Source: Dehalococcoidia bacterium (GTDB taxonomy: Bacteria > Chloroflexota > Dehalococcoidia > GIF9 > AB-539-J10). Taken from it: 64,000 nucleotides of DNA. The DNA lies in assembly GCA_030615625.1 (NCBI GenBank), contig JAUWYX010000002.1, forward strand, positions 11,995 through 75,994, written 5' to 3'. The position numbers and the translations under genes were made by a program. Positions 46,337-53,806 of this stretch are shown here, in pieces (position 1 is the stretch's first letter; every line of letters starts with the position of its first letter). The notes below the pieces were generated by a model, which saw nothing but the letters and a program-made list of their open reading frames with translations, made no database searches and had not been told where the DNA came from.

Positions 46337-46469
46337 GACATCGTCGCATTAGATTATAACTGCTCAAATTCTCCTTGTCATTGCGTCCCCTAATTTGACC
46401 GTCTCCCCTAGCTAATGCTAAACTATTTTCGGGCAGCGTAGCTCAGGGGTAGAGCAGAGGACTCATAAT
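46337..46469 (+). repeat. Direct repeat DR1: copy of the tRNA(CAU) upstream region plus tRNA 5' half (through the anticodon)
   Basis: 133 bp, about 98% identical to 53638-53771. 46433-46469 = GGCAGCGTAGCTCAGGGGTAGAGCAGAGGACTCATAA. Identity ends exactly after CATAA in the anticodon loop. Confidence 0.8.
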
Positions 46470-46748
46470 TCTAAGCTAGATGTCCCAAATGGTCCCTTTA
46501 CCTATAAAATAGAGCCTTTGTGTCAATTACCAAAACCCCGTTTTGCTCGTGAAGTCCCGTTATGTCCCAACCCATCCCAAACAATTTAACGCCAAAATAA
46601 CGCCAATTTTTCAGGTATGGCCTGAAGCTAACGGAACGACAATAGCGATAATACCATAGCAATAAAAACAACAATGATGATAACAACGATAATATCTAAA
46701 TGTGATATGAAATTTTCGGCTAGGGATTGACGTAGCGCTAAGTTTTAC

Positions 46749-49700
46749 CTATTTCTTTCTTGAAAGGCCCTTCAGTTCTTTCTCAGCTTTTTCCACCCAC
46801 CCGGCGGCTCCGCATTCTTTGAAGATTTCTATTGCTTGTTTGAGGTTTTCTTTTGCTTTTGGTGTATTGCCTTTGCGTTTGAACAACCCGGCATATGCAG
46901 TATAGTCCTTTCCCAGATGAAACATCATGCCATTTCTCTTGTCCGCTTCGATGGCCTTCTTGACCCAATCCTCCGCCTCGGATATGTGCTTTTCATCGAT
47001 ATTCAACAGAATCTCCCCTATATATCTTGGCATCCAACCATCATAAATTCTCCAATTGTTCTCGGCCTCGTAGCGATACAACGCCTCTAAATCAACGTCC
47101 ATCTCATTGTTTATTACCCTTGTCCGTGCCGAAGCTATTTTGCACATATTCAAGGAAGAGGGAAAAAGTCTATTTTGTTCGAGCCGCGAAATTGCTTTTT
47201 TATAACAATCCTGGGATCTCTCATATTCGCCCATATCAAAGTAGGTATCGCCCAACCATAAATATCCCAGAGAGAACACTGAAGGTAAATCGATACCCTC
47301 AGCAAAATCAATTCCCTTCAAGAGATGCTCTTCAGCCCGTTCCAGAAATCCCTTGCAATAGCAAGAGTAACCATGGAAAGTGTACCCACATGCTCTTGAA
47401 TAGATATCACCACTCTCTTCGGCTAGCCGCAGGGCCTCATCGCTGGTCTGATAACCTAGGCCAATCCTTCCCTGAAAATCATAGACAAAAGCACTTAGCA
47501 TGCTTTTCTGCACTGATATGCCCCAAAGGCTGTTTCCCGCCACATTAATCTGCAGTGTTTTTTCCATATGGTAAAGGGCTCTTTCATATTTGCAACTCCA
47601 AGACAGCGCAAGTCCCAGCCAGAAGTTTGCCTGTGCTAACGAAAGTATATCGCTTAGCTCCTCTGCCATCTTTAGAGCATCCTCCAGATATTTGAAGGCC
47701 TTGGGAAAATCCTCCTCCGCGTGATACCAGTAGGAGCCCATTATGGTGTATATCTGAGATACCCTCCTCTTGTAGCCAAGCTCCAGAGCTAAATCAACTA
47801 TCGGGTCAACAGCCTCTTTTGCCTCAAAAGGATGACCCATTTGAATGTGATAGAGTCCAACAGCCGTCCGGGCAGCTACTATCTTCCGCTGTACATCCTC
47901 CGTCTGAGGTAACTTGTCAAGGCAGTCTATCCTTTTCTCACTGTATGCAATCGCATCGTTAAATGCCCCTGCCCTCTCAGCTTTCCTTCCCACCAGCCGG
48001 CAGTACTCAGCCCCCTTCTCGTAGCTCTCACCTGCGATATAGTGCTCAGCCAGTACTGCATAATGCTGATCTAGATTATCTTTATAGACCTCCTCAATGG
48101 CATCGCCTATGTCCAGGTGAAGCTTCTTCCTCCTTTTGGTCATTATCGAATCATAGACCACCTCGCGGGTCAGGGCATGCTTGAAGATATAGGTCGATTG
48201 GGGATATATCCCTCTTTCATAGAGAAGCTCTGCATCCCTTAAGGCTGACAGGTGGGACAGCAACTCCTGTTCTGATATGCCAGTCACCCGCTTCATCAAC
48301 TCGTAGCTGAACTCTCTCTCAATCGCAGAGCCCGTCTTAAGCACGCCCTTGGCCGCTTCGGGCAACGAATCAACCCTGGCCATGATGACATCTTGAATCG
48401 TACCCGGTATGGTTACATCATTAACATCTCTGGTTAGAAAATATCCACTATCCTTCCTCTCGATTATCTCAAGGTCTTTGAGGGACTTCATAAACTCCTC
48501 GATGAAAAAGGGGATCCCCTCCGTCTTCTGCAAGATCAACTCCTCAAGGTCCCCCGCTATTTCCTCCGTACCCAGGAGATGAGCTACCATCGCCAGGCTC
48601 TCGCGGTTGGAAAGCCGGTTCAAGGTTACCTGGCTGTGATAGGACCTGCCGCCCCAGGTGTGCACGAACTCAGGACGGTAAGTAAATATCAAGAAAACCC
48701 GTGACCCCGATATGGTATCCAGCCAATACTTCAAGGTATCCTCGGTGCTCCTATCAGTCCAGTGGAGGTCCTCAATAGCCATTATCAAGGGCCGTAGCTC
48801 TGCACCCTTCAGGATAACTCGCTTTACTGCCTCGAGAATCCGATCTTTCCTGGCTTCCGGGCTCATGGATATGTTGTCTATTCCGCTGTCCTTGACCGAT
48901 AGCAGCTCCAGAAGATAGGGCAGGGTGTTGGCCTCGTCTGCACCTAATAGCTTCAATCCCTCTTTCACCCTATCCCTGACCCGGTAGTCCTCGTCACTTT
49001 CCCTGATATCAAAGTTTGACTTCAAGAGGTCTATGACTGGATGATAGGCCACGCCCCTGCTGTATGAGAGGCACCTGCCCTCCAAAAAAGTAGCATCCTC
49101 GTTGGCTATGGCCTTTCTGAACTCATACAGCAGCCTGGACTTGCCCACGCCGGCCTCGCCCATGATGGAGAAGGCCTGGCCCCTGCCTGCCTTAGCCCGT
49201 TCGAAGCCATCCAGCAACAGCTCGAGCTCCCTCTCCCGGCCCACAAAGGGGGTCAGGCCCCACTCAGCGCTTACGTCAAACCTCGCCCTTCTGGTGCTGG
49301 TGGCGATCACCCGGTAGGCCTTGACCGGCGCCTCCTTCCCCTTGACCTGCCTCTCCCCCAAGGCCTCAAAGCGGAAAAGGCCCTCGGTGACCTTGAAGGT
49401 CTCCTCGGTAACATAGGTGGTGCCCGGCTCCGCTAGATCTTCCATCCTGGATGCCAGGTTCACCGTATCCCCCATTGCTGTGAACTCCACCCGCAGATCA
49501 TTTCCCAGGCTGCCGACCACAACGGGGCCGGTGTTAATGCCAATCCGTATCTTTATCGGGTCTATCCCGCTTTCGCTCTTTAGACGATTACTAAACCTGG
49601 TCATCTCCCGCTGGATGGCCAGAGCGGAGCGAATGGCCCGCTGGGGGGCATGCTCGAGGGCTCTGGGGGCCCCAAACAGGGCCATGACGCCGTCGCCGGT

Positions 49701-50126
49701 CATTTTGTTGATAGTGCCACCATAGTCGAGAACTTTATGGATTAGGATCTCAAAGACCTCATCCATGATGGAGTAGATTTTCTCGTGGCCGAGTTTCTCG
49801 GAAAGTGGGGTAAATCCCTTCATGTCACAGAACATAACAGTAACCTGCTTGCGCTCACCTTCGATTTTGTCTCTTTGAGCTAGGATCTTCTCGGTGAGCC
49901 CTCTAGGCAGGTAACGCTGGATCTTCTCCAGTTTCTCGTCAAAAGAGAGGCCTCTGGGAGTCTGTTCGAAGGGAACTGTCAGATCGTGGCCGCACTCACC
50001 ACAAAATCTATCCCTGGGAAGGTTTTCAGAGCCACACTGAGGGCATATCTGCAAAAGCTTTGCACCGCACTCGTGGCAAAACTTCCTCGTCTCAGGATTT
50101 TCCGCTTGGCAATTAGGGCATTTCAT
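46749..50126 (-). CDS. Multidomain STAND-type protein: double zinc ribbon + class III adenylyl/guanylyl cyclase + AAA/NB-ARC-like NTPase + TPR array
   Basis: N-terminus CPNCQ..CHECG..CPQCG..CGECG; cyclase core VTVMFCDMKGFT...GDGVMALFGAP; P-loop GEAGVGKSRL; about 500 aa of TPR-like helical repeats. Confidence 0.8.
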   Translation of the reverse strand: MKCPNCQAENPETRKFCHECGAKLLQICPQCGSENLPRDRFCGECGHDLTVPFEQTPRGLSFDEKLEKIQRYLPRGLTEKILAQRDKIEGERKQVTVMFCDMKGFTPLSEKLGHEKIYSIMDEVFEILIHKVLDYGGTINKMTGDGVMALFGAPRALEHAPQRAIRSALAIQREMTRFSNRLKSESGIDPIKIRIGINTGPVVVGSLGNDLRVEFTAMGDTVNLASRMEDLAEPGTTYVTEETFKVTEGLFRFEALGERQVKGKEAPVKAYRVIATSTRRARFDVSAEWGLTPFVGRERELELLLDGFERAKAGRGQAFSIMGEAGVGKSRLLYEFRKAIANEDATFLEGRCLSYSRGVAYHPVIDLLKSNFDIRESDEDYRVRDRVKEGLKLLGADEANTLPYLLELLSVKDSGIDNISMSPEARKDRILEAVKRVILKGAELRPLIMAIEDLHWTDRSTEDTLKYWLDTISGSRVFLIFTYRPEFVHTWGGRSYHSQVTLNRLSNRESLAMVAHLLGTEEIAGDLEELILQKTEGIPFFIEEFMKSLKDLEIIERKDSGYFLTRDVNDVTIPGTIQDVIMARVDSLPEAAKGVLKTGSAIEREFSYELMKRVTGISEQELLSHLSALRDAELLYERGIYPQSTYIFKHALTREVVYDSIMTKRRKKLHLDIGDAIEEVYKDNLDQHYAVLAEHYIAGESYEKGAEYCRLVGRKAERAGAFNDAIAYSEKRIDCLDKLPQTEDVQRKIVAARTAVGLYHIQMGHPFEAKEAVDPIVDLALELGYKRRVSQIYTIMGSYWYHAEEDFPKAFKYLEDALKMAEELSDILSLAQANFWLGLALSWSCKYERALYHMEKTLQINVAGNSLWGISVQKSMLSAFVYDFQGRIGLGYQTSDEALRLAEESGDIYSRACGYTFHGYSCYCKGFLERAEEHLLKGIDFAEGIDLPSVFSLGYLWLGDTYFDMGEYERSQDCYKKAISRLEQNRLFPSSLNMCKIASARTRVINNEMDVDLEALYRYEAENNWRIYDGWMPRYIGEILLNIDEKHISEAEDWVKKAIEADKRNGMMFHLGKDYTAYAGLFKRKGNTPKAKENLKQAIEIFKECGAAGWVEKAEKELKGLSRKK

Positions 50127-53393: not shown

Positions 53394-53650
53394 ATTCAGG
53401 TCCCAGCCGCCGACATTACACTTCCCGTAATCGTTCCATCCCACGGCGACCACGGTGCCGTCGGACTTAAGCCCCACTGTGTGCTCAATGCTTGCGGCGA
53501 CCTGGATGATGTCTGACCAGCTACCGACATCGCACTGCCCGTAGAGATTGTCTCCCACGGCGACCACCGTGCCGTCGGACCTAAGCCCTACCGTGTGATA
53601 CCCTCCTGCGGCGACCTCGGTAATGTCTGTCCAGCCGCCGACATCGTCGC
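53394..53650 (-). pseudogene. 5'-truncated fragment of an RCC1-like repeat protein gene
   Basis: Minus-strand translation ..DVGGWTDITEVAAGGYHTVGLRSDGTVVAVGDNLYGQCDVGSWSDIIQVAASIEHTVGLKSDGTVVAVGWNDYGKCNVGGWDLN*. There is no start codon; an in-frame stop sits immediately 5' within DR2. Confidence 0.5.
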
Positions 53651-53771
53651 ATTAGATTATAACTGCTCAAATTCTCCTTGTCATTGCGTCCCCTAATTTG
53701 ACCGTCCCCCCTAGCCAATGCTAAACTATTTTCGGGCAGCGTAGCTCAGGGGTAGAGCAGAGGACTCATAA
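53638..53771 (+). repeat. Direct repeat DR2 (tRNA upstream region plus 5' half, contiguous with the intact tRNA)
   Basis: Partner of 46337-46469. Confidence 0.8.
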
Positions 53772-53806
53772 GCCTTTGGTCGCTGGTTCAAATCCAGCCG
53801 CTGCCA
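53735..53806 (+). tRNA. tRNA with CAU anticodon (Met, or Ile2 if lysidine-modified)
   Basis: 72 nt. Acceptor GGCAGCG/CGCTGCC, D-arm GCTC-AGGGGTA-GAGC, anticodon loop CTCATAA, 5-nt variable loop, T-arm GCTGG-TTCAAAT-CCAGC, discriminator A. CCA is not encoded. Confidence 0.7.

Follow-up and report, generated by a model that had tools for sequence, protein, structure and literature searches.

The stretch of DNA examined here, 64 kb of contig JAUWYX010000002.1 from a Dehalococcoidia bacterium and referred to below as the window, contains one tRNA gene, a tRNA-Met(CAT) recognised by ARAGORN and by Rfam (tRNA, 68.4 bits). Upstream of this gene lies a 7.2-kb block (46469-53638) bracketed by a direct repeat, each copy of which carries the 5' half of the tRNA, and it is the origin of this block that concerns us. 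Its gene content as listed in an initial annotation of the sequence, namely a cyclase-STAND-TPR gene, a DUF4382 lipoprotein, a thioesterase, a lipoprotein with InlB repeats and an RCC1-like gene cut off at the second repeat copy, agrees with Pfam and with the translations (Table 1).

The two copies of the repeat are 133 bp long, start 7303 bp apart and are identical at 131 of 133 positions (98.5%), the two mismatches (46404/53707 and 46413/53716) both being T/C. Each copy consists of about 96 bp of upstream sequence followed by the 5' half of tRNA-Met(CAU); this exact 37-nt half occurs twice in the window, at 46432-46468 and 53735-53771, without a mismatch and against a chance expectation of 0. 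On the left, identity breaks off abruptly (46335 versus 53638), and on the right it ends directly after ...GGACTCATAA, which is anticodon-loop position 38, the last base of the 7-nt loop CTCATAA. Beyond this point copy 1 reads TTCTAAG (TTCTAAGCTAGATGTCCC...), and copy 2 reads GCCTTTGG (GCCTTTGGTCGC...) into the remainder of the tRNA. The repeat of about 98% identity described in the initial annotation is therefore real, with coordinates at most one base off, as is the observation that both copies stop in the anticodon loop and that only the downstream one completes a tRNA.

Both copies contain a promoter-like site in the direction of the tRNA, TTGACC-18-TAAACT, recognised by its match to the consensus (46395-46424 in copy 1, 53698-53727 in copy 2). 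A further, strong promoter-like site, ATGACA-17-TATAAT with 11 of 12 matches, lies on the minus strand of each copy (46353-46381 and 53656-53684), where it faces the kinase gene at copy 1, and the RCC1-like fragment and the InlB-repeat lipoprotein gene at copy 2. Duplication of the repeat may thus have supplied the latter two with a new promoter, to judge by this consensus match.

Table 1. Features of the tRNA-Met locus, in window coordinates
Feature	Position	Strand	Remarks
AAA_33 kinase-like gene, left host flank	45713..46315	-	Pfam AAA_33, E 3e-18; divergent from the tRNA
Repeat copy 1	46336..46468	+	Native intergenic region and displaced native tRNA-Met 5' half (stub 46432-46468)
Conserved element arm, P' side of attachment site	46469..46699	+	Opens with TTCTAAG right after anticodon-loop base 38
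Adenylate/guanylate cyclase-STAND(AAA_16)-TPR gene, cargo	46749..50126	-	Pfam Guanylate_cyc, AAA_16 and TPR
DUF4382 lipoprotein, cargo (module 50269-51401)	50577..51149	+	Pfam
4HBT-family thioesterase, cargo	51525..51959	-	Pfam
Lipoprotein with divergent InlB B-repeats, cargo	52550..53158	-	Pfam Flg_new_2
5'-truncated RCC1_2-repeat gene fragment	53391..53638	-	86 C-terminal codons and stop; Pfam RCC1_2, E 1e-20
Repeat copy 2	53639..53771	+	Second host-like intergenic region and tRNA 5' half, now serving the functional gene
Intact tRNA-Met(CAU)	53735..53807	+	5' half from copy 2, 3' half native; ARAGORN, Rfam

Occupied sites, empty sites and integrase-bearing relatives

With the kinase-like gene as synteny anchor, 80 related loci were retrieved, mostly from metagenome-assembled genomes (MAGs) of Dehalococcoidia; loci are designated below by L numbers. 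An empty site, in which the kinase gene lies about 120-200 bp from tRNA-Met, is present in 12 loci (L002, L003, L006, L007, L010, L015, L017, L018, L022, L023, L028, L038), including the closest relatives, L018 (94%) and L002 (93%), and copy 1 of the window adjoins the kinase gene just as the corresponding sequence does in these two. The initial annotation had proposed a comparison with related genomes, and it is in these 12 loci that the block is absent, the site being occupied in others. Equally close is the occupied locus L012, which is 94.5% identical to window positions 41590-46685, unbroken through copy 1 and 217 bp beyond; it has the same junction and then leads directly into the InlB-repeat gene, not the cyclase gene. 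The junction, CTCATAA followed by TTCTAAG, is found in three genome loci (once in L008, in L012 and twice in L026), and the 22-mer that spans it (GCAGAGGACTCATAATTCTAAG) matched 29 public metagenome contigs. Most of these contigs have the kinase gene on the left, and all have about 130-230 bp of conserved sequence on the right, followed by varying cargo. Cargo differs from locus to locus: L107 has 2.6 kb of it and L087 about 3 kb, and L095 carries a glycan-modification cluster. The two-copy architecture recurs in the independent assemblies L107, L087 and L094, and units of stub plus conserved sequence are arranged in tandem in L026, L090, L097, L104 and L105/L109. Neither the junction 22-mer nor the 5' half of tRNA-Met had a match in scans of viral contigs; the arm motif alone did match such contigs.

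The conserved sequence to the right of the junction, which we call the arm, connects the window to elements at other tRNA genes. Within the window it contains two internal repeats, ATGTCCCAA twice (46480 and 46562) and TAACGCCAA twice (46587 and 46598), and no second such arm is present there. It is 85-94% identical to the arms of L012, L026 (two copies), L008 and the 29 metagenome contigs; over 233 bp, window positions 46467-46699 also match the far end of an integrase element in tRNA-Ser (L111, 17816-18042) with 77% identity, and the arm matches those at tRNA-Arg with 80% (L117) and 86% (L124) identity. An alignment of eight arms found all of them homologous, and the seven that flank a tRNA half (Met, Ser or Arg) begin right after loop position 38. 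The blocks TTCTAnG, GATGTCCCAAA, TATAAAATAGAAC and TTTAACGCCAAAATAACGCCAA are common to the aligned arms. A related TAACGCCAAnnTAACGCCA motif is found at the integrase-proximal end as well in L111, L124, L008, L109 and L120; the window has TAACGCCAAnnTAACGCCA as a single copy in the left arm and lacks it at the right end. Repeated motifs of the arm type, candidate binding sites of the integrase, are common to the window arm and the arms of the integrase-bearing relatives (L111, L117, L120, L124). At its left junction the block has the left end that typifies this family of integrase elements. Islands of this type can be annotated by a tRNA 5' half that ends at loop position 38, followed by TTCTANG...GATGTCCCAAA...TATAAAATAGAAC...TAACGCCAAnnTAACGCCA.

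Members of the family that carry an integrase were reached through full-length homologues of a zinc-ribbon/helix-turn-helix (HTH) protein, found in a protein search. In several assemblies (L111-L115) an element occupies tRNA-Ser(TGA), and one of these loci, L114, shares its MAG with the empty-site locus L018. When the tRNA is placed on the plus strand, the left end of these elements consists of the native upstream region and a 39-nt 5' half of tRNA-Ser(TGA) (...CTTGAAA), followed by the arm TTCTATGTCGGATGTCTCAAAAGG... (TTCTATG). Past the arm come cargo, the zinc-ribbon/HTH gene, an AAA_25 primase/helicase, an HTH_17 gene of excisionase type, an HTH_3 gene of repressor type and an open reading frame (ORF) of 253 aa. 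At the right end a 394-aa tyrosine integrase (Phage_integrase) is followed after 12 nt by the intact tRNA-Ser, whose first 39 nt differ from the displaced stub at one position. The layout is the same at tRNA-Arg(TCG) in L124, where the stub and arm lie just past a tRNA-His gene and a frameshifted integrase gene precedes the intact tRNA-Arg; L117 retains only the tRNA-Arg(TCG) stub and arm. A complete member on a 13.6-kb contig from a viral collection (L120) has a 12-bp direct repeat at its ends, and ARAGORN found no tRNA at its insertion site.

These elements define a common anatomy. Canonical members (L111, L124, L008, L109) duplicate only the 37-39 nt of the tRNA 5' half, with the 3' end of the integrase gene before it: the gene ends 12-16 nt ahead of the replacement 5' half, and the displaced native half adjoins the arm. 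The order of integrase and then tRNA holds in L111, L121, L124, L125, L008 and L109, and in the window as at tRNA-Ser and tRNA-Arg the tRNA fragment is repeated at both ends with its identity ending at the anticodon loop. The family thus inserts in the anticodon loop with reversed polarity. The initial annotation had described the repeat as the mirror image of the classical attL/attR pair at the 3' side, and the integrase elements in tRNA-Ser and tRNA-Arg have exactly this reversed polarity; its proposal of site-specific recombination within the anticodon loop is borne out by the empty sites, by the junction and arm that recur in more than 30 contigs and by the fact that the same arm bounds integrase elements. 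The tyrosine integrase would carry out the crossover, which would take place within the 7-nt loop.

At tRNA-Met the integrase survives as fragments. A tblastn search with the L111 integrase detected C-terminal remnants (residues ~316-393, about 72% identical) directly upstream of the tRNA-Met 5' half, in L008 before the intact tRNA, in L105/L109, where the arm of a later element follows, and in L012 and L085/L098. Going by these remnants, tRNA-Met is itself a target of canonical members. A member at tRNA-Met should be recognisable by an integrase stop codon and, within about 20 nt or less, GGCAGCGTAGCTCAGGGGTAGAGCAGAGGACTCATAA; TTCTAAG after this would mark the free attP and GCCTTTGG the integrated form. 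In the tRNA-Met islands of the relatives no integrase was detected by Pfam on the ORFs, by inspection of the joined ORF sets or by a motif scan, the sole full match being an unrelated integrase in L030; Pfam on ORFs and a scan for the catalytic motif of tyrosine recombinases likewise found none in the block or anywhere else in the 64-kb window. Because no tyrosine recombinase gene lies inside it, the block is classed as a relic and not as a complete member of the integrase family.

We therefore consider it likely that the block is the relic of a reversed-polarity element, from a Dehalococcoidia family that encodes a tyrosine integrase and inserts in the 7-nt anticodon loop of tRNA genes, and that what remains in the window is a mosaic, decayed and integrase-less form of it. 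In the intact element, the integrase gene would end 12-16 nt before the element's own tRNA 5' half, with the arm of about 230 bp at the other end. Integration would displace the native promoter and 5' half, which stay behind as a dead stub joined to the arm (copy 1 and 46469-46699 in the window), and the 5' half of the element would join the native 3' half and so restore the tRNA. At tRNA-Met, the integrase, the excisionase and the replication module would then have been lost, and the cargo later remodelled with the gain of the cyclase-STAND gene.

Origin of the right-hand copy and competing explanations

The canonical anatomy does not account for the length of the repeat in the window. Four related loci (L087, L094, L107, L026b) have as their right copy a 150-bp unit equivalent to window positions 46319-46468, and copy 2 of the window is this unit without its first 17 bp. 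The unit abuts a 5'-truncated small ORF on the minus strand that encodes a zinc-ribbon/HTH protein, conserved in the four loci and a pseudogene in two of them; its full-length homologues, of 70-80 aa and with an additional N-terminal zinc ribbon, are found inside integrase elements. The promoter-bearing right copy is hence a secondary, host-derived unit and not the attachment site of the family, and it is because the right end was replaced by this host-like unit that the repeat measures 133 bp with a promoter and not 37 bp. The initial annotation was right that the duplicated part comprises the 5' half together with its promoter, as both lie in the repeat; the ~96 bp that hold the promoter are, however, no part of the attachment site of the family, which is limited to 37-39 nt. 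Two ORFs near the breakpoint were considered as recombination genes and rejected. The small HTH ORF is a poor candidate for an excisionase, with only sub-threshold matches to Pfam HTH_23 and HTH_58; an ORF of 282-288 aa beside it in L026 and L087, considered as a novel recombinase, matches no family and is absent from L107 and L094, and for these reasons it is treated as cargo.

The breakpoint between the unit and the HTH gene is identical in the four other genomes, which implies that the junction arose once. A single ancestral event would have replaced the right end of the element by a second host intergenic region with its tRNA 5' half. The most likely route, to which we give a little less than an even chance, begins with an aberrant excision in which host DNA was taken along, as when a lambda-gal transducing phage forms; the excised form would then have been re-inserted either through the ~187-bp homology or by an integrase acting in trans. 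In the lineage of the window a later deletion would have removed the HTH remnant and 17 bp, fusing the unit to the fragment of the RCC1-like gene. Alternatively, copy 2 may have been made in place, by unequal sister-chromatid exchange or by gene conversion with copy 1 as donor, overwriting the integrase-proximal end after a canonical insertion; this differs from the best explanation only in the origin of the long repeat and involves no excised intermediate. In the right copies of L107 and L094 the beginning of the HTH ORF is lost to host-like patches (TACAGCTCGACATCG and CTCCTGTACA); gene conversion between copies therefore does occur, and the 98.5% identity of the two copies in the window also speaks for an origin in place. 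Conversion nevertheless requires homology on two sides, and none exists to the left of the 150-bp unit; moreover, one and the same breakpoint is found in four genomes with differing host flanks and cargo, in L026 within a tandem array, a pattern that fits a unit that moved better than repeated events in situ. An origin in place thus seems possible but rather doubtful, and aberrant excision is preferred.

The block itself is probably immobile today, because its right end lacks the integrase-proximal arm. Homologous recombination between the 133-bp copies could still remove it and leave a site that looks empty. That it should still be a cis-mobilizable element, for which a cognate integrase from another locus of the genome performs excision and re-integration, would accord with the intact left junction (stub and full arm with its repeated motifs), with the frequency of tandem arrays and integrase-less islands at the tRNA-Met site and with the full elements in related genomes, L114 even coming from the MAG of an empty-site locus. 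We regard it as improbable, since the right end has neither the TAACGCCAAnnTAACGCCA motif nor the integrase 3' end found in L111, L124, L008, L109 and L120, the right edge is a deletion scar inside the RCC1-like gene and the window contains no integrase. Readings that dispense with a mobile element fare worse. An ordinary segmental duplication or rearrangement of the region upstream of the tRNA would explain why the repeat includes a host promoter and why its boundary on the block's right lies within a truncated gene; it would leave unexplained a break exactly at the end of the anticodon loop, an arm whose homologues form the ends of integrase elements in other tRNA genes and a junction that recurs in more than 30 contigs. 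As for an assembly artefact, a repeat-induced chimera or a mixture of strains, the related sequences recovered come without exception from MAGs or metagenomes, which makes it possible that the window, too, was assembled from a metagenome, and several contigs end in or beside the repeat (L020, L083, L084, L093, L099); yet the copies differ at two positions, and in independent assemblies a single contig holds both copies (L107, L087) or crosses the junction with long flanks (L012, L094, L095). The recurring junction, the contigs that span both copies and the tandem units therefore rule out, in our judgement, both a one-off duplication, which is highly unlikely, and an artefact, which is slightly more so. 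The anticodon loop is the usual place of tRNA introns, and the interruption lies there, so that the stub at 46432-46468 might be imagined as a functional 5' half, either of a split tRNA gene whose 3' half lies far away or of a gene with a group I intron after this half. This is barely credible: no 3' half follows the arm in any genome examined, an intact copy of the same tRNA exists and the arm is the end of an element. Rfam at the gathering threshold matched only the tRNA and a cyclic di-GMP-II riboswitch in the window, and on this ground a group I intron, or any other family of RNA, was rejected for the point of interruption.

Several points nonetheless weigh against the reading of the block as a relic of this family, or at least against its details. 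Catalysis by the tyrosine integrase is deduced from the anatomy of the elements, and two routes compete for the origin of the host-like copy 2. Searching the database with the integrase tail of L109 gave 998 matches, and among the best 120 of these no intact member specific for tRNA-Met with a full-length integrase was found, only C-terminal remnants. The presence and absence of the block is patchy, and gains are inseparable from losses because loss by homologous recombination recreates an empty-looking site. Finally, all of the genomes compared are MAGs or metagenome contigs.

The same database search bears on how the restored tRNA is expressed. The best 120 of the 998 matches are all fragments of 61-133 aa, and in each of three fragment clusters whose context was sampled an intact tRNA gene on the same strand (Arg-TCT, Arg-TCG, Thr-CGT) follows the fragment within 13-16 nt, implying that decay which spares only the 3' end of the integrase gene is common in the family. 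In L111 this 3' end contains a promoter-like site, TTTACA-17-TATAAT, and the corresponding site of copy 2 in the window is of host type, both identified by match to the consensus. The 3' end may be kept after decay because it drives the tRNA; the many retained ends suggest that there is selection for keeping them. We speculate, tentatively, that this widespread Dehalococcoidia family integrates at the 5' side as a rule, that the last 60-130 codons of its integrase survive as an expression signal for the tRNA, and that the window is an escape from this state in which a host promoter was re-installed. If true, this would be a case at the level of a whole family of mobile elements that take over the promoter function of a tRNA and are kept for it. 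The targets seen so far are tRNA-Met(CAU), tRNA-Ser(UGA), tRNA-Arg(UCG), tRNA-Arg(UCU), tRNA-Thr(CGU) and one site at which no tRNA was detected.

Cargo and neighbouring features

The cargo is a patchwork of modules with different distributions. The cyclase-STAND segment (46678-50268) is bracketed by an imperfect 24-bp direct repeat, identical at 22 of 24 positions (46654-46677 and 50269-50292), and was not found in any related locus, L103, L107 and L124 going from the arm directly into the DUF4382 module; the cyclase-STAND-TPR gene is a lineage-specific addition. The 24-bp repeat corresponds to the distal part of the arm, and in L124 arm-distal sequence is likewise doubled before the DUF4382 module (3745-3793). 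This module lies next to the arm in L103 (95%) and L107 (84%) and inside the tRNA-Arg(TCG) element L124 (86-90%). The InlB-repeat gene of the window is also carried by the islands of L012 (94%), L088 (90%) and L107 (94%). The reading frame of the RCC1_2 fragment is cut at the left edge of copy 2, as its translation makes clear; a 114-bp tandem repeat at 53403-53630 is the coding repeat of this fragment, and full-length homologues that combine InlB and RCC1 repeats exist in L097 and L101. A separate repeat of about 95-105 nt lies upstream of both the thioesterase gene (51972-52077) and the InlB-repeat lipoprotein gene (53232-53327), which share the minus strand, and it occurs with 87-88% identity inside the tRNA-Ser integrase element as well (L111, 13939-14053). 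It has no match in Rfam and may serve as a promoter or leader that is portable, or else represent a small mobile repeat.

Downstream of the intact gene are five 3' remnants of tRNA-Met, of which three start in the T arm (56176-56199, 59212-59234, 59750-59775) and two, named d and e in the initial annotation, start with ATAAG in the anticodon loop (61143-61181 and 62753-62781). The annotation had tied d and e to the crossover that formed the repeat. They do begin in the anticodon loop as it stated, but they must stem from other elements of classical polarity, because an insertion of reversed polarity makes no 3' remnant. The remnants divide 53807-62781 into cassettes of 0.5-3 kb that lack an integrase (with SBP_bac_5, MerR and Bact_hydrolase genes, for example), and these cassettes are reordered in relatives such as L019, L007, L016 and L022. 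The downstream region looks like an array of islets of classical polarity, which by the starts of their remnants would have used crossovers in the T loop and in the anticodon loop of the same tRNA.

Other observations concern the surroundings of the insertion site. A second hot spot for insertions lies between the start codon of the kinase gene and the tRNA promoter (46341 to 46365-46387), with inserts of 0.6-3.4 kb in L004, L005, L011, L013, L014, L016, L019, L083, L089, L099, L108 and L026; the insert in L026 contains a TIR-domain gene and a sacsin/NOV_C gene and has a defence-like look. Locus L005 also has a different tRNA-Met 5' stub, with the junction ...GGACTTTTAATCC and without the arm of the family, and 1.5 kb downstream of the stub an intact tRNA-Met preceded by an upstream sequence of its own (TTGACG...TATAAT); the reverse-complement coordinates are 11881-11971 and 13463-13538. 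This arrangement suggests a second, unrelated type of element that likewise inserts at the 5' side of tRNA-Met. Homologues of the kinase-like protein with 73-78% identity occur on MAG contigs labelled Bathyarchaeota or Methanobacteriota (L046, L052, L063, L064, L068-L070, L073-L075, L078-L080), two chromosome-level records among them, which could reflect mis-binning, mislabelling or transfer between domains. The cyclic di-GMP-II riboswitch aptamer mentioned above is located at 4425-4508 (Rfam RF01786, 61.5 bits).

Relation to known systems

Elements with a tyrosine integrase that use the anticodon loop classically carry the 3' part of the tRNA and leave 3' remnants downstream. They share with the family described here the type of recombinase, the boundary of identity at the 7-nt loop, the accretion in tandem and the existence of integrase-less relics; the polarity, in contrast, is inverted, as the Dehalococcoidia elements bring the 5' part with them and the stubs that they leave are 5' ones, on the upstream side. 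The proposed route to the present right end also has a well-known counterpart, since the specialized transducing derivatives of phage lambda, of the gal and bio types, come from aberrant excision. As in these, host DNA would have been joined to a truncated gene of the element and the integrase-proximal module lost. Cis-mobilizable elements (CIMEs) and their accretion offer another parallel: the island in the window has no integrase, is bounded by att-derived repeats and adjoins sites that integrase-bearing relatives use, and tandem arrays are formed. CIMEs, however, need both att ends intact, whereas in the window only the left end is intact and the right att arm is missing, with a deletion scar in its place, which makes mobilization by an integrase doubtful.

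Within the same bacterial class, the ssrA islands of Dehalococcoides are the nearest comparison. They depend on a serine recombinase (DsiB) that targets the T-loop of the tmRNA gene, they duplicate its 20-bp 3' end and they lie downstream of the gene; many of them have no integration genes and have been proposed to be either cis-mobilizable or fixed (PMC3146451). Like the elements at tRNA-Met, they accumulate in tandem at a single small-RNA gene and are bounded by direct repeats of that gene, but the target in the window is the 5' half of a tRNA, and the related integrases are tyrosine recombinases.

The closest precedent is integration into the 5' part of tRNA genes, which the text of PMC6563490, citing Zhao & Williams 2002 and several archaeal cases, describes as documented though 'considerably less frequent' than at the 3' side. 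In the elements as described there, as in the window, the restored tRNA has the element on its upstream side, it is the 5' fragment that is displaced, and the element would have to supply the 5' part together with the expression signals. As far as the title of the 2002 paper and the text that cites it allow a comparison, the Dehalococcoidia pattern differs in that it is family-wide and extends over at least five tRNA species; in addition, 12-16 nt separate the stop codon of the integrase gene from the tRNA, and the copy in the window has lost the integrase and gained a host-derived promoter unit.

The feature in the window is in this light a decayed example of a rare and already known kind, a dead relic that is functionally ordinary in itself, and it explains the pseudo-tRNA stub and the variable 7-kb island beside a tRNA gene in an uncultured lineage of Dehalococcoidia. 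The more interesting result is the family with its reversed polarity across several tRNAs: integration at the 5' side is regarded as rare, yet here it is the consistent rule for a whole family of elements. This makes two questions testable, namely why the 3' polarity is the usual one and what becomes of an essential tRNA whose promoter is the DNA of a mobile element.

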